In this document: in pieces, positions 7,159 through 64,000 of the stretch
Position numbering within the stretch: the first letter of the stretch is position 1
How the letters are laid out: each line of letters starts with the position of its first letter
Notes under the pieces: model-generated
Told to the model about the DNA's origin: nothing
Databases searched by the model: none
The model's input: the letters and a program-made list of their open reading frames with translations, nothing else
From: Schmidtea polychroa
Lineage: Eukaryota
Assembly: GCA_044892525.1 (NCBI GenBank)
Contig: CM097885.1
Coordinates: 200,384,001-200,448,000, forward strand
Direction: 5' to 3'
DNA length: 64,000 nucleotides
Translations under genes and position numbers: made by a program

Positions 7159-7249
7159 CTATTTGATAATTGTTTAATACTATTTTATTTTAGAAATAAT
7201 AATAATAATTAAAATATGCCAACAGTAGGGTAACATGTGGACTCGGGAA

Positions 7250-7560: not shown

Positions 7561-7689
7561 TATGTGATATTCATTTGTTACGTAATATGTATTTGTTATG
7601 TAACTTTAATTTTTTTAAAACAACAACCTCCCCTGGGGTAGACGTATGATGTAATTCCCTTTGTGACGTCATCGATTACACAAAAGTTG

Positions 7690-16402: not shown

Positions 16403-17270
16403 CTCTAATTGTATTCTTTTTCCGTTTGTCTTTTCTTTTATTAGGTTTATGTCACTTTTATTATTTCTGTTTTCAGATAGAGTTTTCCTTCCTGAGGTTC
16501 TGATACGCGTATTACGCTTCTTAGCCTATTGTTTTCGAAATCCTTTTCACTGCTTCCTTTTATGGATCGACCTTTGGTCTTTGAGATGTCTTTTTGATTT
16601 TGCTTTTCGATTTCTTGTGCTTGCGTGGGTTTAATAGTTCGTCTTCCTTTCTTTGCAACTTTTAATTCTTCTTCTTTCAATAAACTTGGTTCTATTATTA
16701 ACTGTTTTGATCTGGTATGCTTTGTTATTGGTTCAATATTTCCGAACTTGGCTTAATTGTTTGACAATCACTTCTAGTTGGTTGCTGATACTTGGCTGTT
16801 GGCTTGATTGATTGATTTACCTGAATAGAAAAATATCACTTCTCCCTATCGTTTATTATATTTATAAATTATAATATATATATTATATAGTGTAATTGCA
16901 ATATTTTTACTTTGGTTTCTTTGGGTGCCGGCATATCTTAATATTCATTTCGTCGTTATTTTTGTTTACACATTGGTCCTCAAATTATTCTTAACTCGAT
17001 TCTCCATTATCCATTCTATATCCTCATCTATTCTCCTACATGGTTGTCTATTTTCAATTCGTTTTTCGTCTTTTTCCTTCACAATCTTATTTATTTTCAG
17101 TTATATATCCGTCAATGACTTCGGCCGTATTCTCGTTTATATTCTCGTCTATGTTTCTTCCAGGTACTCATCTATGTTCTCGTTTATCTTTCCTTTTACA
17201 TTCTCGTCTATATTCACGTCTGTTATTTCCGTTCCTATTCGTAGCCATTATTCTCATTTATATTCGTATC

Positions 17271-17552
17271 TATTATTCGCATCTATTATTCGCATCTATT
17301 ATTCGCAGCTATTATTCGCATCTATTATTCGCATCTATTATTCGCATCTATTATTCGCATCTATTATTCGCATCTATTATTCGCATCTATTATTCGCATC
17401 TATTATTCGCATCTATTATTCGCATCTATTATTCGCATCTATTATTCGCATCTATTATTCGCATCTATTATTCGCATCTATTATTCGCATCTATTATTCG
17501 CATCTATTATTCGCATCTATTATTCGCATCTATTATTCGCATCTATTATTCG
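17271..17552. repeat. 13-bp minisatellite (TATTATTCGCATC), 21 full units plus 9 nt
   Basis: Direct count; one variant unit (..GCAGC); 13-aa periodicity in overlapping spurious ORFs. Confidence 0.97.
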
Positions 17553-20500
17553 TTTTCCTTTGACTCTCTTTGTCCCCATATTATTCTGCCTACCGGTTAT
17601 CCTATTAATTTAGTCTTTAAGCTCTAATTGTTTCCCTTTACTTCGCTTTGTCTTTTTCCATTTACTCGGTTTTCTTTTTATTTCTCTTGCATGCTTCTTT
17701 TTACTACTCTTCCAGATTTTCCCCATTCTCCTGACTCTGGATGTGAAACACTCTCACTGGTCGATCTCCGATCGTGTGGTGATCAGTCACACGCAGAGAT
17801 GTTCCAGTATATGCGATGGGCCCTGTTCCACATCTTTCGTCAGGACAGTTGGTACTTTCCTGGGCCTTATCCGTACTACGCTGAGCGTAGCTCATAGGTT
17901 GTGGATTTCCTAAATCCTAACAGAAAAATTTTTTCCTTATTCATTTGCTCTCAATTTTCGTAGGACTTTATTCTCATTTTTACGTCGTGCTCTTACTCTA
18001 CTTATCTCGATTACCCTTGGTCCTTCTTCATTATTCTAAATATATCCCCATCTCTTGTCTAGTTAACGTCTTATTGCTATCGCCTTTATTCTTACCGCCT
18101 CGGTTGACTTGTTTCTCGTTAATATGCTCACTATTTCCTCAGGCAGATCCCTCTCGCATCACTCGTTAATATTTGTTTATCCATTTTATTCGTTACCCTT
18201 CTATTCGTCAATGGTTTATTTATTAAACATCCCTGCTCAATTTTGTAATTTATCACGCTTCCGTATTTGTATATTTTCCTCAGCTTTGATTTTTTATGTT
18301 ACCTCTCACTGATTTCCCCGTCATAATGTTTCTCATTTCGTATATTTTACGTTTTCAAAATTTGTTTGTTGTTTTTCTGTTTATGGGCCTCTTTGTTCCA
18401 CTCCCTATATTTTATGTTTTTACTTATTTCCGCGTCTATTTGCTATTTTACTTTTGGCGCGTAACTTTGATTGGTCATTTATTTTCATTATCTCATTTAA
18501 TTGTTTATCTATGTCTACATATACACACATATACTTATACATATACCCTTATCCATAAACATATATTCATATACATATATCCACCTATATCTGGATATCT
18601 ACATCTATACGCATTTTTCCCTAGCTGTTCCTGGAGTGGTTGATATTATTGCATTTATCGTTTCTGAATTTATTCAATCCCACAATTGCAACTTTTTGTT
18701 TCGTAATAAAAGTAGACAGTTCGTTCGTTTTTCATTATTGTAACTTTTTGTTCCATAGTAAAAGTAGGCAGTATGTTCGCTTTCCATAACTAAAACTTTT
18801 GTTCAATATTTCTAATTGATCTCATTTTTGTTAGCATCTATTGTTATTTTAATTGGCCGTGTCGTGATGTTAAGCTTTCAATCTTTTGTTCTATTTCGTT
18901 GTATCGTGTTTCATTTTATATTTGTCGTTTGTCGCTGTTTTGAATTTTCATTCAAATGTCTTTGCCCTTGCTTTCCTTCTGTGGATTTGTTATTTGTTGT
19001 TTCATGTTTGTTCATTTCGTTCTGTGTTTTCCTTATCATTTTTATGGTGTTTATTTGTTCATATTCTATTTTGTTATATGTGTGCTCTTCATTTACCGTC
19101 AATCATGTTTTTGTATAATTTTCCCGATTGTTCCTATTACTGCTCATGTCCGTTTTGATTTTCATCTTGATCTGCCGTTTGTTGTTGTCCTAGTTTGATC
19201 TCATTTTTCCTCCGCGTCTTCGCGAAATGTCGTCCTCGACATTCATTATTTGATTTATCTATTATCTTGTGTTCTCTCGGTTTTCAGTATTTTGTTATCG
19301 TGTCCTCTCTATCATATTTGTCAAACGCCCATTTTCTCTGATTAATTTTCCTTATTCTTAAATAAGTGTAGATTTTAATAATTTGAGTTTTCGCATTATT
19401 TTATCTTTGTTTACGGTGATCGGTCCTCTACTTTTATTATATATCATTTTTGGTTGGGGTGTATACACCGATATATGCGATTATTTATATACAATTAGTC
19501 CTCTTTTTGGCACTCAGTTCTGCCATTACCGTCTCTTTTCCATGTTATGACCCTGCTGATAGTTCGTTGTTTTTCCTCCTTTACGCAAAATACGGATACG
19601 GTGTTCTTCTGATCATTCCACCTCCCCTCGGAATATTTTACTCATCATCTTATAACAATTTTCAATGAATACTATGCTGGATTTGTTATAACTATTTGTA
19701 CTTCATCTTCAGCTCCCTGCGTTTTCGTTTTCCCGTTTTCGTTTTCCCGTTTCCTTTTCCCGTTTGATATTCTCCGTTACATTCTGACCATATCTTTCTC
19801 TCTTTGTTTTCCTCAGTTTTCTTAGTAGTTCATTTCTTGCATTCGGCTTTATCATTAGAGTCGTTCCATTTCTCTTTACTTTAGTTCAATTTTTCCTCTC
19901 TGATCCTTGATTATTCTCTCATGAACAAATTCATTATTCAAATTTTCGATTAGATTGTTCCTCCATGAGATTCCTTGCTTCTGTATAGCTAATGTTATTT
20001 ACTATAATATGACGCTTTTCTGCTTCCATATTTCTCCTGTGGTGGTATTGGGATTGATTTCCAATGTGATCCGTCTCATTCTATCAATTCACCTACATTG
20101 ATTCCTAATCTTTTATCTGAATTTTATTTCATTTTACTTCCCGAAGTTATATACTAATCATACCGCGCTAATATATATACATATATTTTTATATAATCAT
20201 ATACCTTTATATATTCATTGTTCACACTATATATAGTCATAACCCTTTCTATGTATGTGGGTTCATAATTCGTGATACTTTCTAGAGCTCTTTTCGCTGT
20301 TCTTAGTTTAGCGTTCTGTACTCTTTCATTTACTGTATATTTCACCCGTCTGGTTCTAATTGTTTCCCATTCTCTATCGTTGACGTTAGAAAATTTTTCA
20401 TAGTTCATTCCGGTTATTAATATGAGCATCGTACGTATAACTGTCTTGTATATTCATATTACTTTGGCTAACCTTGGGCTTCTTGGTTTCTTTCGCCGGA

Positions 20501-23500
20501 TCCTTTGTCGATATCCACCACGTTATTCCGGTGTCTTGTGTAGTTATTTTCCTTAATTTCTGTATTTACTTTGTTAACTTCCTGAGCCGTTCTACATAAA
20601 TTTTTAAAATTCATTTTCGACATATCCTTGATGTCTGTGATGTTCGCCTATTTTGCAAAGTTTTTCACTGTCATTGTCACGAAGATTTTATTTCGTTTTA
20701 TTTTTGCTCCCTTTTTATACTGTGGTTTTATTTTTTTAATAGTTATTCTCGATTGTCTTTGGTTCATATTTATTTTTCGAGTTACCAGCGAGTTATATCC
20801 CTTCATCTATCTTGCAGACAAGTTTAGTTCTTGTTTTTGGTCTTTTACTTAACGCTTTTGTTCATTCTAGGTGTTGATGATATATAGTTATTATTTCTAT
20901 TCGTGATGTTTCGATGTCTTTCCGTCTTCACTTTCTTTTACTTTCAGTAGAATCTGTTGATTCGCTCCGTTTCGTCTGGTAAACTCATCTCTTTATCTTT
21001 AATGTCGTTCGTCTCAGATTCACATTTGCAGAAGCTAAGGCATGGTTATCACTTGCTTTATTTATCGTTTGGTGCTTTGTTATCTGTCGAGTCTTATCGT
21101 ATTTTTTATTTGAATGTTTATTCAATCGTTTTTAGGGTTTAATATTTTCCTTTTACCGACGCCTTTTAACATCCTTGGGTACTCTACCCTTGGTTTGGTA
21201 TGTGTAGAAAGTATTACATGTAGAGCATAATTGGTGTAAACATTCCTTATCATACACTGTATGTATCGACAACTCAATACCAGAATCATATGTAGCCTAC
21301 TTTTTCATAAACCCCTAATCCATACATTCTTATATCTCATATGCATATAATCATTCATACTATTAATTCTTCATCTATCAGTGTATCTTCCAAGAAGTTT
21401 CCATACTACGAAGACCATCACTACATTCATTCTCCAATTTGGCAGTATTGTTCAAAAATTCACATTTCATAATTTTATGACATAAATATTATCACCGGTC
21501 AGAACAATCATTCCACAACAAAACTCAAAACAGACTACTAATTCATCATTCCAATGCAATTTAATCAACGAAGAATATCTCTATTTGTACCCACAAAAAC
21601 AATACATTGATTATCCCATTACTGACTAACAATAATTATTTAAGTGCATATAAATTTATATACAAGTACAAAATGCCATAGTAACATAATTAATGATCAT
21701 TTTCCATGCATGCAAATCTGACAACCCTCCGTCTCATCCTAACTAATTAAATCAAAACTAGAAAGCCATACATAATTTTATTGAAAACTGAATTGTAAAA
21801 TACTTATAAAACATTAATTAGTAAAAATTCAATTAGTAAAGTCCACAAAATCAATGAAAAATATATATAACCATTCCAAGCCGCTCTCTTGAAAATAAAG
21901 AAACAATCCACCGGAACAAACCCACGGCGCAACCGAAGCCGACACACCAACCGGCACTCAGCCATCACTCGATCACATAAACAATCATATTAAAGATTCT
22001 TCCCTAAATTCTTGATATTTTAGATAAATCATGAAGAATTCAATGCACATCAGAACAAATAAATAAATATCTTACTTCTTTATTCATTATTTTTTTTTAC
22101 AAAAATCTTAAAATTAACTAAATCCAAAACAAAGCCTATTTGGCAAAGCTAAATGAATGTCTCATTTGTGATAATTAAATGTGCTTTGGTGAAATGAGTA
22201 CCTTACCCAGATTATATACCTTCACTAACTACACCTAAATCCAGAATATCAGTAAAATAAACTGACTACAACGTATTGATGGATTTGATGTGGGAAGAAT
22301 TCAAATGGATATTCATTGATGGTTTTGCATGTAAGATTTGATAGTCGCTCAAAGTTTTATTCAACATCGACAAAAACAACGAAACAAACCGAGAGAAATT
22401 ATAATGAATCGAAGAACTAATCAAATTCCAGCATCATTTTCAAAAGTAAATATTCGAATCATTATTCCAATTGATAGACATGTTAACTTCAATACAAACA
22501 AATTCCATTTTCGTTTTATAAATCTCATAAAATTTCAATTTCATCTGAACACTACAGCAAAAATCCAAATCTACAAGAAATGAATAATTGTTACACACCT
22601 CGTTTCTGATTGGCCGCTTTTCATGCACGTAGAAAATCAATACCTGCACACATGCCATGCCATGCCGCCGGCACGCACACTATACGATTGTATATTCAAT
22701 CTAGACTGTTGTAGAGCTTGAGTGGTAAAATCCGGAATATTTTATTACTACACACACATACACATTTTTCAGATATTACACCAAACCCCACTGAGATACG
22801 TTCTCTATAGTGGTGGTTTGCGTGTAGAGTGATTGCTCACTCACCAATTTACTGATGTTGATGATAAATTGTTGTTTAGCAAAGTTGTCAGTAATTTGTT
22901 TTACGTATGTTTTACATCATGAAATTTATTTTAGCCATTTTAGAAATGGTTTTCAGGTAAGATATTAAATTTAAAGTAAATTTTAAGACTTGAATTTTGA
23001 TCCATATGGATATGAGATCATTATTCAAGTTCTTAAATATTACTTTTAATCAACAATATAATTATAAATTATTTTTAATTAATTTTCAGGCTTTTTTTTA
23101 GGAATTTTATGTCTTTTATTAAAGTATTTTGGAATTATTTCGAAAAAATGTGAGTCCTATATATTTTTAATTATAATTAATTAAATAAATAAATCAATCA
23201 ATGTATTTTTTTAAAACATTTTGGGAAAAATCGCTGATTAGAATAATTTTTTTAATTTTTGTAATTTTTTTTCTGAGCTCAATATGAGGGGATTCTTAAA
23301 GGAAATCAAATCTGGAGTAAAAAGATTTTGAACCAAATTCATCTGCTCTTGATATTTTCATTAAAAATATAATTTAAAAAATTTTCAACGATCTTTTTTT
23401 TCTAAAAATTGTCTAAAATAGAATTATTATAGAAACGTATCTCATCGTTACAATTTTACGAATCAAAAGTTTGTATGTGTTTTTTATTATGTGTTGTGCT

Positions 23501-25263: not shown

Positions 25264-25270
25264 AAAATCA

Positions 25271-26745
25271 TGTTGGTTACTTAGGGGTGTATCATTTTTA
25301 CATTTTAAAATGCGTTAGGGGTAATCATAATCGTTCGACTCTTTCCTAAGCACCTCCATGACTATTGAAATTTAAACCATTTGTGTACCCATGGTGACGA
25401 CCATGTTGGTACTGTACACAAAGGCGAAAAAACAATGAGCAGGTGAGCTCTATTACTAAAACTACTCCCCACTGTATTTTCTTTTCGAGTTCTAGACTGC
25501 CGATAGAAGGTCTTACGTCATTATTCACTATGTATGCTGTTTTTAGATCATTTGTGGTCCTCAATTACGGATATTTCCTATTGCTCTCTTACAAAAATTT
25601 TTCGCATGGATCCGCCCTTATTTTCCAGCTAATAATTATTATTCTACACTTCCTACAATATCTAAATTATCCTTTGAAAAATTTGAGCAGGGATCTGCCT
25701 GTATTCTCAGTCCTAACCTACATTTGACCACAGTACTTCCAGCGATAGGACCCGTGAGGAAGCCCCCACATTCCGGCCCAAATCCAGCTGCGCGATTGAA
25801 AAACCAGCATACCCACCAGTCTGAGCATCCCGAAGGTACCTCAAACCATGATATGCTGAATCTCAATTCAGCGGTACTAACGTTCGTAATCAGTTAGTAT
25901 AAAAATTGAACACAATAAAAATTATTATTTCATACCTACAACTAAATGAAATTAAACAATTAAAAGAAAATAACAAAAGAAAATTTAACTAAAAATTTTA
26001 TTGCATATTAAATTAAATCATCTCGTAAAATTACTACAACAATAAAAAATAAATTACCAAATCCACGTTGGCATAAAATCGAAAACTGAGAGCTTCACTG
26101 TCTGCAACTAAATTTTGATGTTAGAGAAAAAGTTGTCCCCTTAAATGAATTTGTGATCAGTATTTATACTGATTTTTCATGCATTTGCTGCCACTCTATC
26201 CAATCAGAGTGCGAGAAATTTTTAATTAGTCTTGCATACATGCATGAGTGTGTGCAATTGTTTATTTGTTTTAATTCAATAAATTTAATTAATTTCTTAT
26301 TTAATTTTTATTAATTTTAATTTTATAAATTTTATAATTTAAATAATTTGAGTTATATTAATTTTTATTAATTTAAACATTTTTATTCTTTAAATTTAAT
26401 AAGTTGAATAACCATTTAATTCTATAAACTTTACAATTTATATAATGCTAACTAATTTTATTATTTTTGACGATTTAATTTTTATATTGTTTAAATAATT
26501 TTCAACTAATTCTATTTTATATTTTATTATTTTTCTATTTAAATTTTTAAGTGTTGAATTTTTTGTTAAATTTATTTATCCCTTATTCTATTATACGGGG
26601 TTTATTGGTTCTTAATGTGTGATGTAATTTATTTCATTTATTATAAATTAAACCTTGGTCATAAATTTTCCAACTTTGCGGTTTTTGTGTTAGGTATTTT
26701 TCGATCGATTAAAACAAACTCTCAGTTCTCGGCTTCAGCCCAACA
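25271..26745 (-). repeat. LTR (1475 bp) acting as 5' LTR of the gag-bearing unit
   Basis: Near-identical to 11613-13087 and followed (minus strand) by the PBS. Confidence 0.93.
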
Positions 26746-27068
26746 AATCACTCCGGGACCCTTTAAAATTGCGTCCCGCAATTCTGTTAGACATATGAAT
26801 TTCCCAGGTCATAGTCTATTACATTCCCATTAACCTATAAACATACTATTATAGCTTAAGACATGTTAGAATTCAATTAGCAGAAAAAGGTCTAAGCTCA
26901 AATTCAAGCAGTTGCCACATACAGTGACTGGTCATAATACATATACATACTGATACAGTGTCCAAACTCAAGTACGAGTCATATGCAAAAGTTTTATTTC
27001 TGGATAAATTCATCAGTTGGTTGTTTCTCTCGTTTCTGGGCTCGGTTTTCGATCTGTTGAATTTTTCG

Positions 27069-28090: not shown

Positions 28091-31000
28091 ATGAATAAAC
28101 AAAAAACTGTCTTCGTTCTGGTGCATACCAGTGATATGCTTATCCCATCGGGTCTTGATGTTTCTCTTGAATCTAAAAAGTCATTTCCTGCAAATCCACT
28201 AATTTATAACAAAACATTATGGAGTGCAGTATGTGAAAGTGTTTTAGAATATATCAGAATTGTTTATGATATATTTAGTATTGAAAGAGAAGTTGTTTTT
28301 TAAATATTAAAATGTTATAATATTACGATAGATGGCCTTGATAGTAGCTGATTCCAAAGAAAAAATTTGTATTTCTACAAACGATAAATGTCAGCAAACA
28401 TGGCGTAGTGTATGCATGATTCTTTTTTAATTTTTAGTAATTGTGGTGTAATATAGTGGATGAAAGTTCTTTCCGAAATAGGTTCTCCTTCAAATGCTAC
28501 ACCAAGCTTGTTACCATCTATTTTACCCGGTTTTAACTCAATAAAATCTGTATTGGAATTAAAATCAGAAAATGATTATCCGAACATTGGTCGAGTTATT
28601 GTTTTAGGATACAAAATGGGGTAAAAGTTTAATATTTAAAGTTTAATATTTAATTTAGCTGCATACAGCGAGAATGTCATACAATGGGTTGATGACGTGA
28701 ATACTGCCATGAATTCCGAGACCATATTAGGCACATCGTGAGTACAAATTGAAAATCTATCAACCGTAATTGTTTTAAGTAGCAAATTAGTTTCTGAAAG
28801 TGAATGGTATTTTATCGATGTTGAGCCGGTATTGGAAGGTGTAACAGGAAATGAAACTCCAATTCTCATAACTGTAAGTTCAAATACATAATTCATCCAA
28901 TGCTTTAATTTTAATAATAAATAAATAATGTATACAGATTTTACTATAAATTAAACAAACCAATAATTAATTCTTAATGAATTTTTGTGAATATTTTATC
29001 CTGTAATCTGATTGGTTTACGTGATTGGTTGATTTTTTATTTTTTATTCCAATCAATTTTTTCGATTTTTGAAGGATTTCACACAATAGTAAAATTGTTG
29101 ATTTAAAAATTTCTAATAATATAAATTGGGAAGTTAATTGATAAACATTAATTTAGACAGAAAAATCAAGCCAGCATAAACTCTATCGACAGACTGTAAT
29201 GGCTAACAGGGAATTACACCGATCTCTAATGTCATTGTGTGAACAGCAACATGAATTGGCTTGTATTCTTGTGCAAAACATTCCCATGAAGGAGGATACC
29301 AACAATACTCAAAGCGCTATGTATGGGGTGGAATTGATTCACCCTAGAGCTGCACTCGATCATATTGTACAGGCTGGATTGCTTCCTCTCATGACCATGG
29401 CTCATCGTCCTTACTGTGGTTTCTCTAGCTGCATTGGTATTCGATGGGTTACACCCAAACAAACCCAAGATATTGGTGAGTATAGCTTATGCCACCCTCC
29501 CACCCTCCCCATTATATCCACTAGAAACAGAGTCCGATACAAATGAACCAAGCAAAGCGATGGTTATTGAAAGGCAAACGAATAAATTGTGAATTTAACA
29601 AGTATAATATCGCCATTATTTATTTGCACTTTCCAAAGATTTTTCGGTTATGCACAAGCAACCCTGAGATAACCTTGCCTTAATAGGGGGTCCCATTAAA
29701 TCCAATCGCAAAATAGATGTTGCGATTGAAATAGATTTATAAATGGGAAAAGTCCAATAAGGTTACATGTTGGTAAGTGGGTGATCCATTTTATCGACAT
29801 TAGATCAGTAATGGCAATCTCCATAGAAACCAGACCCCATCCAATTTCTGTGGGGTTGAATTATCGAATATTTTATAATTTCACTACAAATCTAAATGGA
29901 ATTATTAGATTATTACAACACGAAAAGTGTATATCGAATCACAACTGCTGACGTTTGTCATCGAGCTTCATGCTGTCTTGCTAATTTCGTACTGGAAGGT
30001 AAGTCTAAGGAAAATAGATGTGGTTGGTTTATAAAAATCTCATAGGGCGTAGCGTGGTTTTGGAAATCGATCACAGTTTGATACCAATAGGCGCACCGGG
30101 TTTGCCTGAACCGAAATATGAATTGCTCCTATTAACAAGTCACAGTGGACTGTTGCATGTACACACATTGAGTGCCCACCGAGACCCGATATTTCCCACC
30201 GCAGATTCGCTTAATAAAATGCCTATGATTTCTGAATTGGCCAATAAAAAGATCTCCAATAAGCTCCGTATTGCGGATTTCAGTCAATTTATTATGTCCA
30301 ATCGTCTGGTGCCTGCAGCTCCACAGTCATCGTTTCTACCGATGGAACGGGCTCTCAGGGAAATCGAGCAACATACGAGATATTGGCCAGAACTGACAAT
30401 CGATACACTCGTGTTCAATAAGGTGATTTACTTTCATCATCGTCATCCTCATTGTTCCTTCTAGCCTCTGATGCCAAAAATCGCGGAAATTCTAGCTAAG
30501 AAACATTTGGATTTTTCAGAAAAGAGTAATTGCATTGGATTCTTACAGCAAATGATTTTCGATCAGAGTAATGCTGAAAAAACCTCAAAAAAAACCGGGT
30601 AAATGATTTTTCTTCAAAAATTTAAACTCCCCTTAGTTACGCTTTAAACAAAATCAACCAATTTCTCAAATTTTAATATTTAACGCTTCAATATAACTTC
30701 AATATAAAGTGAAAAATCAATATTTTAATATCATCATTAGAAAAAAAATTAAATTTCTTAATTATAAAAATTTTTGCACCCTTCAAATTGAAAATAAAAT
30801 TTTATACTATTTCATATTTTGGCAAGTTTGCACAAAATTGATCAATAAATTATGTGAGCCCCTGACGTTGCCATTAGTTACTGGGTTTAGCAACAGATGT
30901 CCCTTGTTCCATGGTCAAGTCGGATTATTGATTTTTAAGTGAAATTTTACATTTTTGTTTTATCTGCTATTGTGCGGTGGTTTGGGATTTTCAAAAAAAT

Positions 31001-36580: not shown

Positions 36581-36760
36581 TTAACAAAATCAGGTTTGTG
36601 GTAACACATTTGGTGAAGAATTTATAAAAGAATTTTTACTGGATGTTCCAAATGTTGGTCACTTAGGAGTGTGTCAGTTTATTTTTAAATGTGTTAGGGG
36701 TAATTGTAGATGTTAAATATACTTCTTTCTAAGCGTCTTCATGACTATTGTACTTTAGAC

Positions 36761-39336
36761 CAGCGCTGTCCAACTTTTCTGTACATGTGTGCCAATTTTA
36801 TCTTTTTGTAGGTTTGGCGGGTCATATACTATAAATTTTAATTAAAAGTCATTTATAATTTTTTTTAGTATTTTATTAGTTGATAGTTCAAGAAAAAAAA
36901 GAAAAAAAATATTAACATAATATTTATTAATGTGAAAACTGCTTATTTATATGGGCAGCTACAAGAACTTCGATATTTATATCAATTTTAGTTGAAGAAA
37001 TTCTTAAAATTTCTTCTAGTGTTTTGTCGGTCATTGAATTTCTATATTTAGATTTGATATATTTCATGTCAGAAAATGCACGTTCACAAATATATCAAAT
37101 ATAAAAAAAATATAAAATAGAAATTAATTTTAAGCCCAAATCGCGCAATTTTGGATATTTGTCGTTTGGAAACATTTTGAATAAATTTACCCCTGTCTCC
37201 AGCCTTGATTTAAAAAATTCGTCAGCTTGCAATTCACATAATTCCATTTGATATTTAATATCGGTTTCTTCAACGTCGATGGTAGTCGGATTATTAAATA
37301 ATTTTAGTTCTGGTTTAATTGCATCAAAATCAGAAAATCTGGCATCAAAATCTTCAACCAATTTGTCCAACATGGGTACATAATCTTTCATGTTTAATTG
37401 TTGACCGATTTCTTGCATTTCGATAGCAAGTTCATTACAACACTCGAAGTGCACCAAATTGTTGTTAATCAAATGAGACCGAAGCAAACGTAACTTATTG
37501 CGGAATCCGATGATATGGCTTACCAGATGACTTATGTTTTGGTCTTTGCCTTGCAAGTTTTTGTTCAAAACATTCAAATATTCGGTAATATCTGCTAAAA
37601 ATGCTAATGAAATTAAAAATGTTTTTTCATTAAAACTGGCTATAAATGACGAATCCAATTCTGTTTCCATAAGAAAAAGTTTAATTTCTTTACGAAGTTG
37701 AAAAAATCTTTTAAGGCATTTCCTTGCACTTAACCAGCGAACTTGGCTATGCAAAAGTAGATCACCATATTGGGCATCAAGTTCTTCAAGAAATTGTTTG
37801 AATTTACGATGAATGAGTGCACGGTTTCCGCCTCTTATTGCATTTGTTATTTTAATAATTGTACTCATCCTGCAACTTAATCCCATAATGTTTCCACATA
37901 AAGCTTGCTGGTGAATAATGCAATGCAACATTTGACAATTAATACCATTTTGTTTTAGCAGTCCAGCGAGTCCTATATTTTTCCCGACCATTGATTTTGC
38001 TCCATCAGTTACAATGACAGTGCATTTTTCAAAACCACCATACATGCAAACAACATTTTTGAGTTCCTCATAAATATCTACACCTTTTGTTGTTGAATGT
38101 AGGGAAGCCAATTTCAGTAACTCCTCCGAAACATTAAAATCACCATCCACTGTACGTACAAAAATCAGCATTTGGCTGGTATGAGATATGTCGGTGCTTT
38201 CATCAAGCGCAATTGAAAAATATATACAATTTTTTACTATGTCGGCTAATTTTTCAACTAAGGTGTCCATATTTAAGATTCGTCTTGCAACGGTTTGGTG
38301 AAAAAGAGAAACTGACTCGAACTGTTTTGCCATTTTATCATCTCCAAATGCTTGAGCCATTTTAATTGCACACTTCTTAATAATTTCATCATCAGTAAAT
38401 GGCTTTTTGGCTTTGGCAATTTCTTTTGCAACTGCATAAGAAGCATAAACAGATGCATCCTGAGCCTTACATACGAGGGGGATAATTGATGTTTGCTGCT
38501 TAAATTGTTTTTTTAAATTTTCAAGTATGACGATTCTCGACTCACCATTATATTTCGAATATTTGTCTGCATGCTGTGATTGATAATGACGCTTCAGATT
38601 ATATTCTTTACATATAGTAGTATTCATCCGGCATATCAAACACAGATAAATTTCTTTCTGCTTCACAAACATATAATCAATTTCCCATCGTTCTTTAAAT
38701 TCCCGATTCTCACTCGTAATTTTTCGTATTTTTTTTGCACTCATTTTATGACAGTAGTAAATATTAATATTTGTAAATTTTAAATAATAAAATAAGTTCG
38801 CTTGAAATAATAAAAAACTAAAAAATTAAAAAAAAATTAAATACCAAATTTTTTAAATGTACTTACCTAATTTTATGTGTATATTAAGCAAATAAAATTT
38901 CACAATAAAAACAATCAAACACGCGTTTACAGATTTTAAAATTTAAATACATATGTATTTCATTGTACGTAATTAAACAACGTTTACAATTTTAAATAAA
39001 CTATGTCACTTGTGGGTATAGTTTCATGGCATACTAGCCTGGAAAAGAGTAATAAAAAATAGTACAAAATAGTATTGGCTATGCGTGTGTCATATAGTTG
39101 CGGAATTAAATATAGATCAGTAAAGTTTCATGACAAAAACTAGATTAGAAAGAAAAATAAGACAAATAATATTACTGATATAATGCTGGTCATATTTAAA
39201 ATTGACAAAAATTTTAAAAAAAAATTCCATTATACAGATATTTTTATTTTGTTAATAGGCCATAGAATATGATTATTTTTATTTTGTGAATAGGCCACAG
39301 AAAATGATGAGATGGGCCGCCAGTTGGACAGCGCTG
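36761..39336 (-). mobile_element. Full-length hAT (Buster/Charlie, GTF2IRD2/SPIN-like) transposon (2576 bp)
   Basis: Perfect 14-bp TIR CAGCGCTGTCCAAC; perfect 8-bp TSD CTTTAGAC (36753-36760, 39337-39344). Confidence 0.96.
36927..38744 (-). pseudogene. hAT transposase, ~605 codons with one premature TGA at 37095-37097
   Basis: Zinc finger (CLIC..NLKRHY..H), SIALDESTD, VTDGA, HCIIHQ, VRWLS; after the stop the same frame continues YICERAFSDMKYIKSKYRNSMTD..L to TAA 36927-36929. Confidence 0.92.
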
Positions 39337-40793
39337 CTTTAGACCATCTGTGTACCCATTGCGATGACCATATTGGTACTGTACACAATGGTTGAAAATC
39401 AATGACCAGGTGAGCTCTATTGCTAAAACTACTCATTGTATTTTCCTTCCGGGTTCTGGACTGTCGATAGAAGGTCTTACGTCATTATTCATTGTCTATT
39501 TCTATTGTTGGATCATTGACATGTCTAAATTTAACTATGATCCTTATTTCTGGATGTTTTCTAATGTTCTTTTCAAAATTTTGTGCAGCGATACGCCCTT
39601 ATTTTTCTGTCAATGAATGTTACTATGTATTTTCCGTACTATTTATGAAAATTTAACTTATCTTCCAAAAATTTTGAGCAGGGATCGGCCCTTATTTCCA
39701 AGTTAATAAATGTGGTTCCACACTTCCCATAAAATTTGAGCAGGGATCTGTATCTCTAATTCTGCCCTATTTGACATTCGTAGATTCTATAAGATTACCC
39801 AAACTGAATCTTATCTACCTACAACCGATCTTAGTTACTCTGTCACTACTCCTAACTCAATAATATTCATAAACGCAACGGTGACGGACTCGTCCTATTC
39901 TATCTATATTTAAAACAAGGCTCCAAACTGTCCAAAACGACTATATCCTCTCATCGACCCTATCTCTAACTATACACCATCGAAAGATGTGCCAAACTGG
40001 TCAGCATCTGCTATCCATTGGCACAAGTGCATACGGTTCACAAACGCATTCCAATCTGAGGGCATCCCTAAATCAGAAAAATATTCATAAAAATCAAATT
40101 AAATAACATTCCTGTAAATTAAGAATTACTAAAAATTCGCTTCGAATCGAATATTAAAAAGGAACAAAATAAAATTAAGATAACAAGCAAGAAATTAACC
40201 AAACTAAATTTACTATCACATTTAATTAACTCATAACAATTATACGTTACATAGAATTAATCATAACATTAAATTACTAAAATCCTATCTAACTTGCCGC
40301 GATAGCAAGAACCGAGGAACTGAGAGTGCCTAGCAATGTCCAATCAGAATGCGATAAATTTTGAATTACTTTTGCATGCATGCATGAGTGTGTGTAATTA
40401 TTTATTTTTAATTTTATTAATTTAATTAATCAAAATTTTTTAATTTTTATTAATTTTTACGATTTAGTTTTATAAATTTTATAAATTATATAATTTTACT
40501 ACTTTTATTTTAAATTTTTATTATTTTATCAGTTTACTGGATATTTTAGTTTCAATTTTAAATTTATTTATTTAAAACATTTTCATATTATTAATTTATT
40601 ATTATTTTATTTTCAAGTTGGTAGATTTTTCGGATGCAATATTTCTCCTAACTGTGTTGGTGATTGCAACTTCTTGAGTTCCTTTATTTTATTATACGTG
40701 TTTATCTCTATATAAATTTTTATTGTATTTAATTTTAGAAAAAAACCCTCTGATGTCAGGGAAATTTTTTGCTGTTATGTATTTACTATAAAA

Positions 40794-48199: not shown

Positions 48200-48427
48200 N
48201 NNNNNNNNNNNNNNNNNNNNNNNNNNNNNNNNNNNNNNNNNNNNNNNNNNNNNNNNNNNNNNNNNNNNNNNNNNNNNNNNNNNNNNNNNNNNNNNNNNNN
48301 NNNNNNNNNNNNNNNNNNNNNNNNNNNNNNNNNNNNNNNNNNNNNNNNNNNNNNNNNNNNNNNNNNNNNNNNNNNNNNNNNNNNNNNNNNNNNNNNNNNN
48401 NNNNNNNNNNNNNNNNNNNNNNNNNNN
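48200..48427. other. Assembly gap (228 N)
   Basis: N run. Confidence 1.
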
Positions 48428-55061: not shown

Positions 55062-56926
55062 TTCAAATAGTTTATTCCAATTACGAATAACAACTTTACT
55101 TTAAGAATAAATATTGTGAAAAGTCAAGGATAATAAAAGGTATAAGCAAGAGTATCGAAGGATTCAGCAACACAATATAAATTATTAATTAACTAACAAC
55201 ATATTAGTGGGGTTTGTTTTTTAATTGTAACAAAAAATCTGGAATAAAAAATCTTTATTATAAGCTCTTAAAATTTAATTTTTAATTTCATAGACAATTT
55301 TCAGACGCGGTATTTATTTGACAGACCTTTTCAATATACTAGCAAAACTAGACTGTACATATGTGATATATAAATTCTGACCTCAGAGTCAAAATCTGAT
55401 CTAAAATTGTCTAAAAAGTACATCTAAAATTATTTAGATCCATAAATAATAAATTTAAGCGCAAATAGTACTGCACCTCCCCAAATTTGATAAATAGAGT
55501 ATGGAAAAATAAAAAACAAATACAATAATTCTTCACCAGTCTAACAAGAACTAGAATGAACTCATGGCCAAAGTAGAATTATTGATTAATTTGATTTATT
55601 GGCTGTAAAAAATTTCCCATGTGAAGATTTTTTTTTTGTTTTTAAAGGATTTTACATAGATCGCCGAATGTTTATGCAAATGTGGCTCTGATTAAAATAA
55701 AAAATATCAGATTTAAATAACGAACAATGTCGTTATTGATAAAAATGAGGTAAATAATCCCGTAGTTAGAAGAGTAAAAATCTTTTAGAACAATATAGTT
55801 TTTAACATAAATATCAAAAGGAAAATTACCATATAGTGAGAAAATATGTCGGTTTCATGATATTCCTTGAGTTATAAAAACTTTATTGGTAATTTTCCAA
55901 TGTTGCACAGATAAGAATTATCTTTCTTATGAAAACGTCATGAAGAAATTAGAAAAATAGGTTAACAAACGAAAGGTTTTCTTTCCTCGAATACAAGATG
56001 AACTCCAATTTTAATCGAAAAAAATAATAAAAAATACATTTTTTAAGACTTCCATGTCTAATTGTGCAAGAAAATCCCCCGCAATCGAAAGGTAAGAATA
56101 TTAGGCGATATTTATTGGGAAAAACATCGTATTATAGCCTAAAATATTTCTGATAACAAAATGTCTATTATATTGAAATTAAAATCTTATTAAAATCATT
56201 TTACTTCTATCTGTTATCTAGAAATGTATTTATTTTCATTCTTCAAAACTACAAATAATTGAGCTGCTTCCTATTTGATAAATAGTCGAAAAGAATGAAG
56301 AGAGATGAAACCATATTGTGTAATAAATTTTTGCGACTGTTTTTGTTTTAATCAACTTTCAACAATCAAATATGACAAAACAAAATCAAACATATTATAC
56401 GAAGTTAGTAGAATCATAATAAAAACTTAATTATTCAGGGTCACGGTAACTTTTGAATCATTATATTCTTTTACAAAATATAAAGTTTATTTCCTTCAAA
56501 TCTATGAACAACTTCAGTTAATTATAACAAATAGTATAATTTGCCATGAGAGTTTTTTAAAGAATTTTAATTTAATTTTCACAAAATTTCTTGAAATCAA
56601 AAACGAGTCCACAAGTTATTTCTAAATCTGATTTTGACACTTCACATCATTCCATCATTCCATCATTTTTCGATAAAAATAACGATACCAATTCTAAAAC
56701 TGGTAGTGTAGGGACTTCGGAGTAGAACTAAAATCCTACGACAAAATTATATCATAGAATAAATTGAGAATAAAATAGAGTAAAGTAGTCTTTTGTCGTA
56801 GTCTTGAGATTGATTCAGCTGTATATCGAGAGTAGTGAATAGTAAGGACTCCAGGACACTTTCAAGGTCATCCCAATGTCCAGATCAAATATAGGTCAAT
56901 CGAATCATTTTTTTTTTTAATTAACA

Positions 56927-57066
56927 NNNNNNNNNNNNNNNNNNNNNNNNNNNNNNNNNNNNNNNNNNNNNNNNNNNNNNNNNNNNNNNNNNNNNNNNNN
57001 NNNNNNNNNNNNNNNNNNNNNNNNNNNNNNNNNNNNNNNNNNNNNNNNNNNNNNNNNNNNNNNNNN
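56927..57066. other. Assembly gap (140 N)
   Basis: N run. Confidence 1.
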
Positions 57067-57510
57067 TTTATTATGCTTTTATTTTAGTATTATTTTATTA
57101 TTTTATTATTTTATTTATTATTATTTTTTTTTTTTTATTTTTTTTTTTATTTTTTTTTTTTTTTTTAATTTTACATTTACATTATATTCTAACAAGAGGT
57201 AAATTATAACGATAATATTTCAATTTGAATAAAATTTTAATTAGTAATTATTCAATTTGAATAAATTTTAATTAGAAATTATTTAATTTATTATAAAATA
57301 AAACGCTGAGTTAATTTTAGATAAACTGGATATTAATATTTCGGAAAAAATAAATAAATAAATAAAATAAACACAAAAATAATATTTCTTACTTGAAACT
57401 AATTATCTAAATTAATTGGACAAATGAATAATTAAATGATAAAACACATTTTAATTAACTAAGTCAAACAATTCACAATATATATTTTATTATTCACATA
57501 AATTTAATTG

Positions 57511-60500
57511 TTAAAGTGCTTGTTTCGATTTGCATTCATTTCTAGACATAGCAGTTGCAATATGCATTTGGCGAATCTTATAGTGACCGTAGGCATAACT
57601 TTCATTACAATTGTACCAATACCTTTTATCGTCCAAACATTGGAGAGCTCGTTTTTCTGTCATGAAAGTATACAACTGATGATTGACACTTCCTATTCTT
57701 TTTTGTGGGATGCTCACTGTTCCACCATCAGTATACACTTTTTTATAGGCTTCATGTGTAAGATTAGAGTTTGTAAGTCTTATTCCTTTGGCTTTTAGAG
57801 TGTTTTTATCGCCTTGGAGTGAGTAGCACTTGGGTCGAAGAAACACCCATTCTTTATATTGATTTCCTTTATTCTCATCCTTGAATTTCCCGATTACCGA
57901 ACAAATTTTATCTGAGAACAATGGATCAGTCACTGGATAATTTGAAGTATCTAGGAGCCCATCGGCAATCATTTTTGGATATAGTTGTAAGCGTAAATCT
58001 ACATTTTTACACTCTAAAAAGAAGGAATCTGTGTCACCGGCTACGATATTAATTTGACAATTGAATTCTTCTCTATAACTCTGTAGTTCTTTATATTGAA
58101 ACTGGTACATGCGAAGTTTGGATAAATCAAGTACGGTTTGTCCAATATACATTGGTCTATCTAAACACACAATTTCCTTATTGAGTATAACAGCAATGAG
58201 ATCATCCGCAATCTTGATGCTACGACGAAACATAGGATTACTACAATAAGTTATCAATCTTTTGCTTTTGCTGCATAATCTCAAATTTATACGTTTCTTC
58301 AAGTTTTCCACAGTTTTACCGTATAAACTGTTGTTCTTTAACTTATAATAATCTCGCTGAAACGAATCTGTACTAGCTGCTCTCATTTTGGTATTGTAAT
58401 CAATATAGCCTTTGAAAATAGCCACTTGCTTGAATTCTACAGCACGATTAACTTTTGTGACTTTTGCGCCGTAACTCAACCACTCTGTCAAAACTCTACC
58501 ATTAACTACATAGTTTTTCTTAGGCTCATGAGTTAACAACAGCTTTTCAACTTTACTACCAGGTGGATAACAAAGCTCAGGAGCTATAGGTAAATCATCT
58601 AGTTTATCTTGTATACTATCAGGAATGACGATGTCAACCTCTAGAACATATCCAAGATCTCCATCAAACTTATCCCCATTTGCACATCTTTCAACAATAC
58701 CATTCATTTCAGTCTGATCATTTATCCATCTAAATTCACCAACAGGAAGTTTTTGCGACAGCGCCCATCCATATAAATTATTAACATCTAGGTATGACAT
58801 TTGTGTTGATTCATCAGCTTCAACATGATGTTTGTTGATAAATGTCATTCCACCACGAATACCAGCTTCAAATAAACGGTAAAGCTCTGGATCTTGAATA
58901 AGTTCTACTGGTTCAGGTAACTGTTTAATAGCTGATGCCCAACTTAATCCGGGTATGGAAACAAACGATAGAGCCTCAAGTCCATCTTCGTCAAATGTTT
59001 TTTCTCTGAAAGCTTCAAAAACATCGGCCAACAGAAAAACATCCAACTTGAGATATACTAGCATGTAATCTAGCAGTGTCTCACAGTTGTATTGTCGCCA
59101 GATTCGATTTGCATGTATATAATCTTCTTGACTAACTCCCTCCCAAATCGGTGGTAATTCTGTTATTGACTGTAAAACATCCATTGATGTAGCCATATCA
59201 TAAGGAAATATGCCTTTACCAGTTATTAAATGCGAATTGAAAATCTTTGAAGTAAGTGGAAGACGTGGCAAGTTTTTTGATAAATTTGCCAAGCTGCTAT
59301 TTAAAAATTGTAAAGAATCAATGAATCTAATTCTTCTGCCTTTCGATGTCGCTGTAAGTGTGAGAAACTTTTCTGTTGATTGAGGAATAACAATTAAATT
59401 CCAATCGGGGAATTTTCCAATTGCATATTTTAATATATGATGAATGTCATATCCACGAAGATTATGAAATACAACAGGTAAAGACGGATTGATTCTTCTA
59501 GCCAAATTACAATCTTGACACGCTGCTCCGAGATATTGACCAGTAAAATGATCATGATCTCGAACAGGTATATTGATAATCTTTTTACAAAGGTAGCAAT
59601 GAGTTTGAGTCGTGAATTCTTCCTGCTGTTCCCAAGTGAGTTCCATCATTTCCTTCGATCCATTAATTTTATACCACGGATAAACTATGTCTGTAGCTAT
59701 ATCATCCAATGCTTGTATAAACTGAATGATACAGTTTTTCCCAACAAATGTTTCATTTCGAATCGGACAACCTTGATGAAGAAGCACAAATTCAGATGCA
59801 ATCGGCTCATGTTTTTGGAAGTGCTTGTCATCTAGAGGTAATATTGATTCAAAGTCCGCGTAGACAACAAACTGCTGTTTTATAGTTTTACTCCAGTCTT
59901 TAAATTCGATATATTTATTCTCTGGCATTGAGTATAGAGTCGTCCGCTCCACATTCTTCCTACAAAGACCTATATGTCTTTCAAAAGCAGGACGTTTTTG
60001 AAACCCATGAAGACACGTATGACACCAATGTGATTGGATTCTGACTCCTTCTACTCTATCTCTGTAATTGAGCAGTCGATCGAGATTAGTTACAGCCAAA
60101 AAATGATAATTTAATTCTAAAATTTAGTTAATATTTTTAATGATTAAAAGAAATATTACCTTCTTCAATCAATAAGAGATATAATTGACATCCCGTCGAA
60201 GTACTTCTATATACCAAGTCAACGAACGGATTCTTGAAAATATCATTAGTTTTTTGTTTAATTGGATCTTTATTATATTTGAGAACATTGATCGCTAGAT
60301 TAGGATTCATTGCCTCAAATTGGCAAATGTTAACCAACTTCATTGGAAACCAATCTGATTTCCATTTTAACTCTAAATATATATATTTTTAGAATGATAT
60401 AAATATATATTACCACTTAAATTATATTTCATTACTCTTTCTCTGTGATGTTTTATGTCATCATAATGTAATACGGCCAGTATGCTATATAAAAAGCAGA

Positions 60501-61482
60501 ATTGATCATTATTTTGAACATTAACTAAAGCCTGGCAGTTTTTCAGGTAATTTGGCGTTTTAATGTAACTTGAACCTAAGTAATCTCTTGATTTATATAT
60601 ATAATAATGTAAATAATCTTACCAGATACATGTATTATGTCTGATAATTTAGTTAAAATCATAGTAACTTCTAATATTTTATGAATTCTCCACCCACTAC
60701 TTTGTTGAGTGTATTTCTCCAACTTTTCTTTTAATTTTTCAATTCCATCATTAATAAATGAAGATGACATTGTAATTGCTTTATTCGACAAACACCATTT
60801 TTTAATTTCACCATCCTCTTTGATAAACTCTGCACAAAGTCCAAATTGGATTTTTACTGTCCCCATTCGTTGAATATGATCTTCTATTTCTTTGATGAGA
60901 CAATCTGGAACAACAATGTCAGGAGAATTAATTGCAGATACATCGCTTGTCAATTCAACACGAGAACCGTTTAAGTCAGACTCCCGACGTGGACACAATT
61001 GTATGTTAGAGTCTCCATTTCCGTAAAATATTGACTTTCGTTTTGTGGTGCCAGAGTTTTGTCTAACTATATTTATAATTAATATTAAACAACTTAAATA
61101 ACATAACTTGTAACATATTCTTTAATCTCCTTAGGATCGTATGATGTATTCATTTTCGATTGTACTATAAAAAATTAATAATTGTTAATAGTAGAAAGAG
61201 TATTACTTTTAGTGATCATCCTGCTCTTCGTTTCTTCGAATCTTCTAAGATGGTGTCCGTGTTGTCGTACAAACATTAACCACCTACCTGGTGTTATAAT
61301 GAGACATTCCGGACATATGTAACCCGATAAGGTAGAGTCATTTATCTTGAAATATGATGATGTAACTGATTTACAGTTCTCCACATCTTCATGACTTTCG
61401 GCAATACAAAATTTATATAAACTGCATCCGTTCACTAAAAAATAATCATTAATATTAGATAGAGAATAAAAATTTATTCACT
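57511..61482 (-). CDS. Polinton/Maverick-type protein-primed family B DNA polymerase, 7 coding exons, ~1236 aa
   Basis: Exo motifs YADFES, FHNLRGYD, YLKLDV; pol motifs YLDVNNLYG, KLKNNSLYGK, GDTDS, GKFKDE, LRPKCYS, KAKG; EndoVII-like insert and C2HC finger. Coding exons 61482, 61434-61207, 61164-61108, 61066-60623, 60575-60414, 60372-60160, 60116-57511 sum to 3711 nt with no internal stop; exons 5-6 give family N-terminal blocks GSSYI.TP..VNVQN.D.FCF and FPMKL..ICQFE..N. The first three introns are less certain. Confidence 0.88.
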
Positions 61483-61504
61483 TATATAAGTTAAATTAAA
61501 AGTT

Positions 61505-61642
61505 TAAATGACAAACATTTGAAAAGTTACTGCTTATATATTACACATGATTAAATTCTGACCAATCAAAATCAAGGAAGGGGTAGGAAAAATAAATATA
61601 TTCTGACCAATCAAAATCAAGGAAGGGGTAGGAAAAATAAAT
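61505..61642 (-). promoter_or_regulatory. Putative Pol II promoter of the polymerase gene
   Basis: TATATAAG at 61540-61533 and TCATT initiator-like A at 61509 (31 nt spacing); two 42-bp direct repeats (61556-61597, 61601-61642), each with a CCAAT box. Confidence 0.65.
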
Positions 61643-62048
61643 GCATTACATTGCAGTATTTTAAAACTTAAATTTTAAAACACATTTTGACGCTAAAGTT
61701 GACTTATTTAACATTTTCATAATAATTTAATAAAAATAATGTGTTGAACTCACAAAGTAATATCATTTTTTTTTTTTTCATCAAATTGCAAAACAGTAAT
61801 AACGTTTTCATAAAATTGTAACAAAGTAATAACATATTTCAGATAAATTTTCAACAGTTGTAAAATATTTATCAAATTGTAACTAAAATAATAAAAATAT
61901 TGCAACAAAGTAATAAAATAATAATGGTAATTAAGACAAATCAATACATTATTTCGAAGACGGACAACAAATTAAAAAGAATATTGTAACTAAAATAATA
62001 AAAATATTGCAACAAAGTAATAAAATAATACAACATTTTAAACTCTAG

Positions 62049-62460
62049 ATCAATCCATTTTATAGAAAATTAAATTTTATCTATATAATATATGAATAAA
62101 TATCCAAGGAAATTACGTTAACGTATAATAAATACAAATTTATCGTAAAAACATGTGTGTATTACACACAAAACAAGATACATAATTTCTAATCAATCCA
62201 TTTTATAGAAAATTAAATTTTATCTATATATTATATGAATAAAATCCTAAGAAAATTACGTTAACCGCGCGAAAAATACAAATTTATCATAAAAACATGT
62301 GTGTATTACACACAACATACGAGACATAATTTTTAATCAAGCTATTTTATAGAAAATTAAATTTTATCTATATAATATATGAATAAAAATCCAAGAAAAT
62401 TACGTTAACCGCGCGAAAAACTACAAATTTATTGTAAAAACATGTGTGCATTACACACAA
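62049..62460. repeat. Three tandem ~142-144 bp units within the left inverted-repeat arm
   Basis: Units start ~62049, 62191, 62335 (atcaa..ttttatagaaaattaaattttatctatata...acatgtgtg.attacacac). Confidence 0.9.
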
Positions 62461-64000
62461 AGCATCAAACTGAAATTGTAATTGCGCCATGTTGTAGAGA
62501 ATTAAATTCTGCCTATACATTGTTACACTTAAATCTCGATCAGACATGTGAAAAGAGACATAAAAGAGAAAAAACAGTAGAGTAGTATGATGTGAGCTCC
62601 CCAGACCATGTCCCCTCCAGACCACATATACCCCCTCCCCCCCCCTCCCCCCCCCCGGTCTGAAAAATTTTATTTTTTTAGAACGATGCCTAATATTTTT
62701 AGAACTATTACGTAATCAATGCCTAATATTTTTAGAACGATGCCTAATATTTTTAGAACTATTACGTAATTTTTTTTTAAATTAAGTGATCCAGCGGGGA
62801 CCTACTTTTTTTCATCCCAAAAATTATTGTTCCCGCCAACATATTATATTGATCGATAGCTTATTTTAAAGCTCTGTGCAAGAACTTTCTAATGAGATAT
62901 AGATTTTTATCATACGATGACTCATCACATTTTTAGAACAAAGACAATGACTCATCACATTTTTAGAATGATGTCTAATATTTTAGAATGATGCCAAATA
63001 TTTTTAGAATGATGCCAAATATTTTTAGAACGATGCCTAATATTTTTAGAACTATTACGTAATCGATGTCTAATATTTTTAGAACGATGCCAAATATTTT
63101 TAGAATGGTGCCTAATATTTTTAGAACGATTACGTCATACTTTTAGAACGATGCCTAATATTTTTAGAACTATTACGTAATCAATGCCTAATATTTTTAG
63201 AACGATGCCTAATATTTTTAGAACTATTACGTAATCAATGCCTAATATTTTTAGAACGATGCCTAATATTTTTAGAACTATTACGTAATTTTTTTAAATT
63301 AATTGGTCCAGCGGTGACCTACTTTTTTTCTTCCCAAAAGTAATGTTTCCATCATCCGAATTTATTAATCAAACACTTATTTTAAAGCCCAGTGCAAAAT
63401 CTATATACTGATATATAAATATTATTATTAACATTATTTTACACACGGGGGGAGGGGGTATATGTGGCCGAGCGGGCTCCTGGCCGGGCGGGCCCACATC
63501 ATACTACTCTACTGTTTTTTCTCTTTTATGTCTCTTTTCACATGTCTGATCGAGATTTAAGTGTAACAATGTATAGGCAGAATTTAATTCTCTACAACAT
63601 GGCGCAATTACAATTTCAGTTTGATGCTTTGTGTGTAATGCACACATGTTTTTACAATAAATTTGTAGTTTTTCGCGCGGTTAACGTAATTTTCTTGGAT
63701 TTTTATTCATATATTATATAGATAAAATTTAATTTTCTATAAAATAGCTTGATTAAAAATTATGTCTCGTATGTTGTGTGTAATACACACATGTTTTTAT
63801 GATAAATTTGTATTTTTCGCGCGGTTAACGTAATTTTCTTAGGATTTTATTCATATAATATATAGATAAAATTTAATTTTCTATAAAATGGATTGATTAG
63901 AAATTATGTATCTTGTTTTGTGTGTAATACACACATGTTTTTACGATAAATTTGTATTTATTATACGTTAACGTAATTTCCTTGGATATTTATTCATATA
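62089..64000. repeat. Long inverted repeat: arms 62089-62642 and 63447-64000 (right arm cut by window end), axis 63044.5
   Basis: Coordinates pair with sum 126089; identical in all spot checks except a 27-nt block (62595-62621 vs 63468-63494). Confidence 0.95.
62677..63340. repeat. Spacer tandem array of GATGCCTAATATTTTTAGAAC with TATTACGTAATC inserts
   Basis: More than a dozen visible 21-mer variants; higher-order duplication 62677-62830 vs ~63200-63340. Confidence 0.9.

Follow-up and report, generated by a model that had tools for sequence, protein, structure and literature searches.

A long inverted repeat with Polinton end motifs beside a protein-primed DNA polymerase gene in Schmidtea polychroa

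At the right end of the 64,000-nt stretch of Schmidtea polychroa DNA analyzed here (the window), a long inverted repeat lies upstream of a gene for a protein-primed DNA polymerase B (pPolB). We tentatively read this region as the polymerase-side end of a high-copy Polinton/Maverick, the terminus of which would lie at 63508. A second, inverted end copy nested at 62581 would have served as the site of foldback priming, from which a head-to-head junction arose. Most of what is known about the replication intermediates of Polintons has been inferred. A nested end copy placed exactly where the perfect mirror starts would suggest a specific and testable way in which palindromic (snap-back) derivatives could arise from a normal Polinton. 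The features of the region are collected in Table 1.

Table 1. Features of the polymerase gene and the adjoining inverted repeat (positions in the window)
Feature	Position	Strand	Evidence
Assembly gap, 140 N, ~450 bp past the polymerase stop	56927-57066	.	Sequence
Gene for a Polinton-type, protein-primed DNA polymerase B; the last exon is long (57511-60116), and the upstream part is divided by three short putative GT-AG introns, possibly four	57511-61411	-	PF03175 (E=3.5e-31); homologues; tblastn; splice signals
Probable polymerase promoter: 45-bp doubled CCAAT-box unit and TATA-like box	61530-61642	-	45-bp repeat; doubled box and TATA-like box likewise upstream of pPolB in L023
AT-rich short repeats: 30-bp units and a 48-bp duplicate 107 bp apart, grading into the 144-bp array	61775-62043	.	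Repeat analysis
Left outer arm, its mirrored part beginning at 62089 or further left; ~3 units of 144 bp that bear small palindromes are followed by unique DNA	62044-62580	.	492/492 identity with right outer arm
Left-type end copy of 62 bp, at the inner edge and directed into the spacer; has AGTAGT, an imperfect stem-loop and a run of C	62581-62642	+	50/62 identity with right copy; predicted fold weak (-2.0 kcal/mol)
Asymmetric 804-bp spacer made of two degenerate direct units of ~517 bp, themselves composed of 21-, 33- and 54-bp subrepeats; contains TTACGTAA six times and TGACTCA twice, and no notable ORF	62643-63446	.	Repeat analysis
Right-type end copy of 62 bp, its AGTAGT directed towards the polymerase; 63508 is the proposed polymerase-side terminus	63447-63508	-	Motif and orientation as in related loci
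Right outer arm: perfect inverted copy of 62089-62580; continues off the window	63509-64000	-	Arm comparison

Arms, end copies and spacer

The two arms (62089-62642 and 63447-64000) are 554 nt each, are 98% complementary and lie 804 nt apart, in agreement with the initial annotation, which had described arms of at least 554 bp. The right arm is truncated by the end of the window at 64000, and this alone sets the left limit at 62089. All 12 arm mismatches fall within a single 27-bp patch (62595-62621), a clustering for which 6e-15 is an upper bound on the chance probability. Beyond the patch, the arm pairs are identical at 506/506 positions on one side and at 21/21 on the other. The arms are two-layered: the outer 492 bp form a perfect mirror (492/492), and the inner 62 bp form an imperfect pair (50/62). 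CpG decay was considered as the source of the mismatches and rejected by eye, the changes at the four CG sites being neither C-to-T nor G-to-A.

The left arm contains subrepeats with a period of 144 (2.9 copies, 62044-62461), close to the ~143 bp first given. Two full units are identical at 132 of 144 positions, with a partial and a degenerate unit on the flanks. The small palindromes noted earlier are present at three sites each, the GTGTGTATTACACAC-type palindrome at 62155, 62299 and 62444 and CGTTAAC at 62116, 62259 and 62403. The left edge of the array is not sharp, and the units fade into promoter-side DNA. The foldback had been placed directly upstream of the polymerase promoter; we find instead that the arm begins ~450 bp beyond the doubled CCAAT box (61562 and 61607).

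The inner 62 bp of either arm begins with the Polinton end motif AGTAGT, reading into the spacer, and 62581-63508 is a 928-bp module of the form AGTAGT...ACTACT. We agree with the earlier view that the arms are not a normal pair of Polinton terminal inverted repeats (TIRs); the end motifs at their inner edge enclose 928 bp only. AGTAGT occurs 29 times in the whole window, and the probability of a chance occurrence within the inner 62 bp, calculated post hoc, is ~1.3%. The two 62-bp copies show parallel differences in both halves of an internal 16-bp duplication, which suggests that the left and right copies are two long-separate end types and not a decayed pair. The symmetric boundaries between 62560 and 62599 all lack a target-site duplication of 4-8 bp. 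When the end copies and a single 144-bp unit were folded as DNA, the z-scores were +0.3 to -1.9, none of them convincing.

Exact-pattern searches for the 62-bp end gave 0 matches. A 14-mer end pattern matched at least 120 loci; these are chance matches, because blastn at E 0.01 links none of them to the region. Two other candidate ends were set aside. CATCAT, an adenovirus-like start, would give outward-facing termini at 62592 and 63497 and would leave a further 48 bp of inner similarity unexplained. AGTAGT at 56831, tried as the outer end, scored 20 against 16-19 at the next chance sites, which is not significant. It is one of two AGTAGT motifs just left of the gap (56784 and 56831) and, among the other sites, the best match to the 62-bp end, though a nonsignificant one.

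The spacer had been described as ~800 bp of 21-bp repeats. The size holds and 21-bp subunits are present, but it is not a plain 21-bp array, since these subunits are combined with longer ones in two direct copies (62672-62907 and 63191-63423, 86% identical; Table 1). The exact pattern of the 21-bp unit gave 0 matches, an Rfam search of 56000-64000 returned 0 matches at E<=1, and no transposase was seen in the loop. blastn of arm and spacer against loci L001-L112 revealed AT-rich background alone.

The polymerase gene, its relatives and its surroundings

Full-length homologues of pPolB reach 63% identity, and two fragments reach 96%. By tblastn, unsplit homologues match in 4 to 5 pieces in different frames. 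The putative GT-AG introns in the N-terminal part lie on the minus strand at 60622-60576, 60413-60373 and 60159-60117 (47, 41 and 43 nt), with a possible fourth at 61206-61165. By eye the introns are in phase 1, and homologues P0002, P0004 and P0006 are unsplit at those places. The closest relative with flanking genes is L020 (52%), and the polymerase is of the Polinton type because this locus encodes an rve integrase, an A32-type ATPase and TBP. In L020, pPolB and the gene block (4464-10764; integrase, ATPase and a short TBP, PF00352) are on opposite strands.

Apart from pPolB, tblastn with the 507 ORFs of L001-L038 (38 of the 87 loci) detected no Polinton gene in the window; 84 of the 86 matches lay in pPolB, and 2 were repeat-driven matches in the spacer. 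The element enters a gap on one side and runs off the window on the other. A further N gap is located at 48200-48427. A single-protein scan of viral contigs returned no relative, and no Rep/HUH nickase family was found in the 8 ORFs scanned of 12 that are at least 120 aa long.

AGTAGT is found near the contig end (within 14 nt), upstream of pPolB, in 5 of the 112 pPolB loci, where 0.2 would be expected; a wrongly oriented AGTAGT at a contig end was found in 0 of the 112. The ACTACT end at 63508 has the same orientation to the polymerase as in those five loci and lies ~2.1 kb upstream of the first putative exon. This distribution supports the reading of 63508 as a terminus. The nested inverted end copy is absent from all five relatives with an AGTAGT end (best scores, 23 to 39), which are distant (26 to 33% at the amino acid level).

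Relative L019 carries 21-bp arrays downstream of pPolB, the unit of which is loosely similar to that of the spacer (array score of 136 versus a shuffled mean of 92, with 1 of 300 shuffles as high; unit identity of 13/21, p=0.037), and blastn detected no spacer match in this locus. Because the arrays are loosely similar, they hint that the spacer may be Polinton-native DNA. In L019, the stretches 1404-2190 and 2281-3514 hold three 21-bp repeat clusters and then convergent ORFs, one of which has a phosphatase-like HC...SR motif.

Self-complementary contig ends occur in three pPolB loci (L054, 4776-4941; L080, 4790-4996; L082, 3493-3663). L006 has a 1.18-kb inverted repeat, 83% identical, at 2260-3424 and 10852-12034.

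Contigs from other samples

The stretch, or part of it, is present in 20 of the 24 listed runs, which come from 8 studies. Positions 57200-63560 were compared with contigs of four runs (X1, X5, X7 and X8), one from each of four studies; most of the right arm lies outside the compared stretch. The comparison is of contigs only and not of reads, its depths do not give copy number, and X1 may be the source sample. All 30 bins of the stretch were covered in all four runs, with polymerase, arm and spacer each covered. From X1, 83,418 contigs were aligned, with hundreds of variant sites (40 shown and 253 more), and the Polinton family therefore is high-copy and varied.

Summed depth at the spacer edges (62672 versus 63446) was 1.03M versus 0.99M in X1 and 2557 versus 2378 in X5; it was missing at both edges in X7 and at 62672 in X8. 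The junction from the spacer to the G-run was seen in contigs of X1 (31 contigs), X5 and X8. Because the 31 X1 contigs carry an extra G at 63446 and the edge depths are alike, the right spacer junction occurs in other copies and is not unique to the present assembly. Since all three parts are covered in contigs of four studies and this junction is found outside the assembly, polymerase, arm and spacer look like parts of one high-copy Polinton family and not like a separate foldback transposon. Both edges of the spacer, and the arm, exist in the family.

None of the 15 joints shown (with 202 others) changed strand. None of the 24 loose ends shown (with 1878 others) lay at 62580 or 63508; among those shown, therefore, no AGTAGT forms a free or variably flanked end. 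The contigs shown included none spanning the spacer and the right outer arm. In 18 X1 contigs the match to the spacer stops at 63438, where other sequence takes over. A single X8 contig matches the arm as far as 63542, beyond which it enters different, CCAAT-containing DNA similar to the CCAAT-box sequence upstream of pPolB in L037. An internally deleted family member is represented by one X1 contig, which lacks 2195 bp (59441-61637) and with them the 5' half of pPolB.

Origin of the head-to-head arrangement and comparison with known systems

The accepted model of Polinton replication is protein-primed synthesis with strand displacement, in which single strands become exposed. On the foldback reading that we favor, the terminus would be the AGTAGT at 63508, read on the polymerase strand, and the end region would carry a second, inverted and diverged end copy 928 bp inside, at 62581. 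Displaced single strands would end in ...ACTACT-3'. In a single strand arising from strand-displacement replication or from a resected break, this 3' end could pair through 14 perfect bases with the inner copy while the spacer looped out. Extension of the paired 3' end would then produce a mirror-image copy of the arm and, probably, of the promoter and polymerase as well, and the product would have been fixed in the chromosome, either once or as the center of a palindromic subfamily. The divergence is wholly inside the motif (12 mismatches) with none outside it (492/492), as expected for an old short inverted repeat and a recent copy.

Of the origins proposed in the initial annotation, a head-to-head junction is thus kept as the best reading. 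A concatemer is not, since the motifs face into the spacer (AGTAGT at 62581 and ACTACT ending at 63508); an end-to-end concatemer or a circle junction would instead read ACTACT followed directly by AGTAGT. A dedicated hairpin origin, also suggested, is neither shown nor required. Several results count against the foldback reading, namely, that nothing shown spans the spacer and the right outer arm, that no strand-changing joint and no loose end at 62580 or 63508 is among those shown, that depth is missing at both edges in X7 and at 62672 in X8, that 18 X1 contigs depart at 63438, that one X8 contig passes into different DNA behind 63542, that the five relatives with AGTAGT ends have no nested copy, that AGTAGT alone is frequent in the window, and that the long loop and the persisting mismatches differ from the yeast case described below.

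It is rather unlikely, and yet to be weighed first, that the Polinton end and the 928-bp module are genuine and that the right outer arm was made by the assembler, either because a collapsed repeat was used a second time in the opposite direction or because a chimeric read had folded at the 62-bp repeat. The 100% identity over 492 bp, despite the hundreds of variant sites in the family, points in this direction, as do the two N gaps, the spanning contig missing from those shown and the self-complementary contig ends in related loci L054, L080 and L082. The depth in X7, nearer to one arm than to two per polymerase (253 to 318 in the arm bins, over about three subrepeats, versus ~100 to 120 in pPolB), is a weak hint of the same kind. 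The occurrence of the spacer-to-G-run junction in X1, X5 and X8 contigs argues against an assembly-made arm. Moreover, if the X8 contig that reaches 63542 includes the right-type loop, at least 34 nt of arm follow ACTACT in an independent study, the placement of this sequence in the right versus the left arm being uncertain. Should the right arm prove to be a product of the assembly, the remaining finding would be a terminal module with two ends, an unusual structure within an abundant repeat family and one of modest interest.

We also consider it unlikely that arm, module and arm together are a fixed internal part of the element. They would then form a control region that is bounded by inverted repeats, may be capable of inversion and separates the polymerase from a divergent gene block; the end motifs would be relics of an old head-to-head fusion. 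Such a layout would fit the X8 loose end behind 63542, which enters CCAAT-box sequence like that upstream of pPolB in L037, although this evidence is a single contig. It also would fit the absence, among the loose ends shown, of a pile at either AGTAGT motif, and the internal 21-bp arrays between genes in L019, the unit of which is somewhat similar but the sequence of which gives no blastn match to the spacer. The available text of PMC8097293 likewise describes divergent gene modules in cane toad Mavericks. The AGTAGT terminus upstream of pPolB in relatives counts against this layout, and no comparable long inverted repeat was found upstream of pPolB in 87 loci or in 9 longer loci, most loci being short.

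A built-in self-priming Polinton end is doubtful. In such an end, a conserved inverted copy of the terminus 928 bp inside would allow a displaced strand to fold back on itself, and replication would yield head-to-head dimers carrying the spacer in either the flip or the flop orientation. If this were true, giant palindromic Polinton derivatives would stem from a second route of replication, and the present locus would be an integrated, polymerase-bearing intermediate.

Very unlikely, in our judgment, is a separately mobile mini-Polinton, in which the 928-bp AGTAGT...ACTACT unit inserted upstream of the polymerase and then seeded the inverted duplication. The unit has both end motifs and 62-bp terminal repeats, inside the TIR range of 46 to 1447 bp in the accessible part of PMC8097293, and spacer depth is at least as high as polymerase depth in all four runs, inflated by internal repeats. 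Its TIRs, however, are only 81% alike, and a second copy is absent from the window. The missing 4-8 bp duplication at the symmetric boundaries does not discriminate, as foldback would erase such a duplication.

An independent foldback transposon had been put forward earlier. An element of this type, with modular long TIRs and akin to FB or Galileo, that came to lie beside the polymerase by chance is highly improbable: long subrepeat-built arms do surround a noncoding loop, but the left outer edge is not sharp, Polinton end motifs lie at the inner edge, the arm, spacer and polymerase are covered together in all four runs, and the loop has no transposase.

Drosophila Foldback (FB) and Galileo elements have long arms of tandem subrepeats around a loop. 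The present locus has modular long arms in common with them and differs in that its arms are continuous with the Polinton promoter region and bear Polinton motifs at the inner edge. A head-to-head geometry with a single-copy loop at the center is characteristic of snap-back defective viral genomes and of parvovirus dimer junctions, and the locus resembles both in these respects. Unlike a parvovirus-type replicon, it has no Rep/HUH nickase in the scanned ORFs, and its ends are of the protein-primed type. Palindrome formation in Tetrahymena was reportedly studied by Yasuda and Yao in 1991.

In yeast, according to the available text of PMC10622511, inverted duplications arise when a DNA end folds back and primes at a short, imperfect inverted repeat close by; the spacers are 6 to 35 bp, and mismatches in the repeat are mostly corrected. 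The duplications described there share with the present locus a long perfect mirror centered on an older, short and imperfect inverted repeat with an unpaired spacer. The loop here is 804 bp, compared with the 6 to 35 bp given there, the 12 mismatches persist, and the end sequence of the mobile element itself serves as the repeat. PMC10164571, from the part available, deals with divergent repeats that lie far apart in long single strands. By analogy, the present structure may work like a foldback inverted duplication or a snap-back genome.

The polymerase and the end motif place the locus among the Polintons/Mavericks (PMC8097293; bioRxiv 10.1101/2023.08.22.554363; adintoviruses, PMC8502044), which, in the portions of these sources at hand, are alike in the pPolB gene, the AGTAGT//ACTACT motif and the position of the polymerase near one end. 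AGTAGT//ACTACT enclosing the element is given as the commonest vertebrate Maverick end motif in the accessible text of PMC8097293. Like these elements, L020, the nearest relative with flanks, has an integrase and an ATPase. The motif pair here encloses 928 bp of noncoding repeats, whereas theirs, as far as the available texts go, encloses 13 to 25 kb of genes. A 6-bp duplication is absent here at the tested boundaries (62560-62599), and the flanks are mirror images. The pPolB gene here has putative introns, in contrast to the intact vertebrate elements, which are intronless in the texts available. As it has no target duplication, the 928-bp unit is not classed as a complete Polinton element.

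Our literature search, which was of incomplete coverage, found no paper on palindromic or nested-end Polintons, which is weak evidence of absence, and nothing relevant on foldback assembly artefacts. In the parts of the texts available, PMC5499653 uses "non-autonomous polintons" for Tlr1 only, and PMC6431247 adds nothing on palindromic or nested-end Polintons.

Elsewhere in the window, a direct duplicate of 1789 bp, 99.9% identical, lies at 11609-13397 and 25267-27055. Diverged matches to it, at 36652-36762 and 39338-40528, flank an ORF for a Spin-doc zinc-finger protein of 549 aa (37095-38744). The duplicate and the Spin-doc ORF region look like a DNA transposon and its noncoding derivative. 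A piggyBac-like transposase (PF13843) is encoded in two ORFs at 2199-3880 on the minus strand. A retrotransposon gag with a zinc knuckle (14120-16402, minus strand) lies within a strongly T-skewed stretch (13000-21000) that also has a 13-bp array at 17128-17552. A degenerate-looking ASF1-like ORF (5813-6232, minus strand) and a Mat89Bb-domain piece (30018-30464, plus strand) probably are host DNA.
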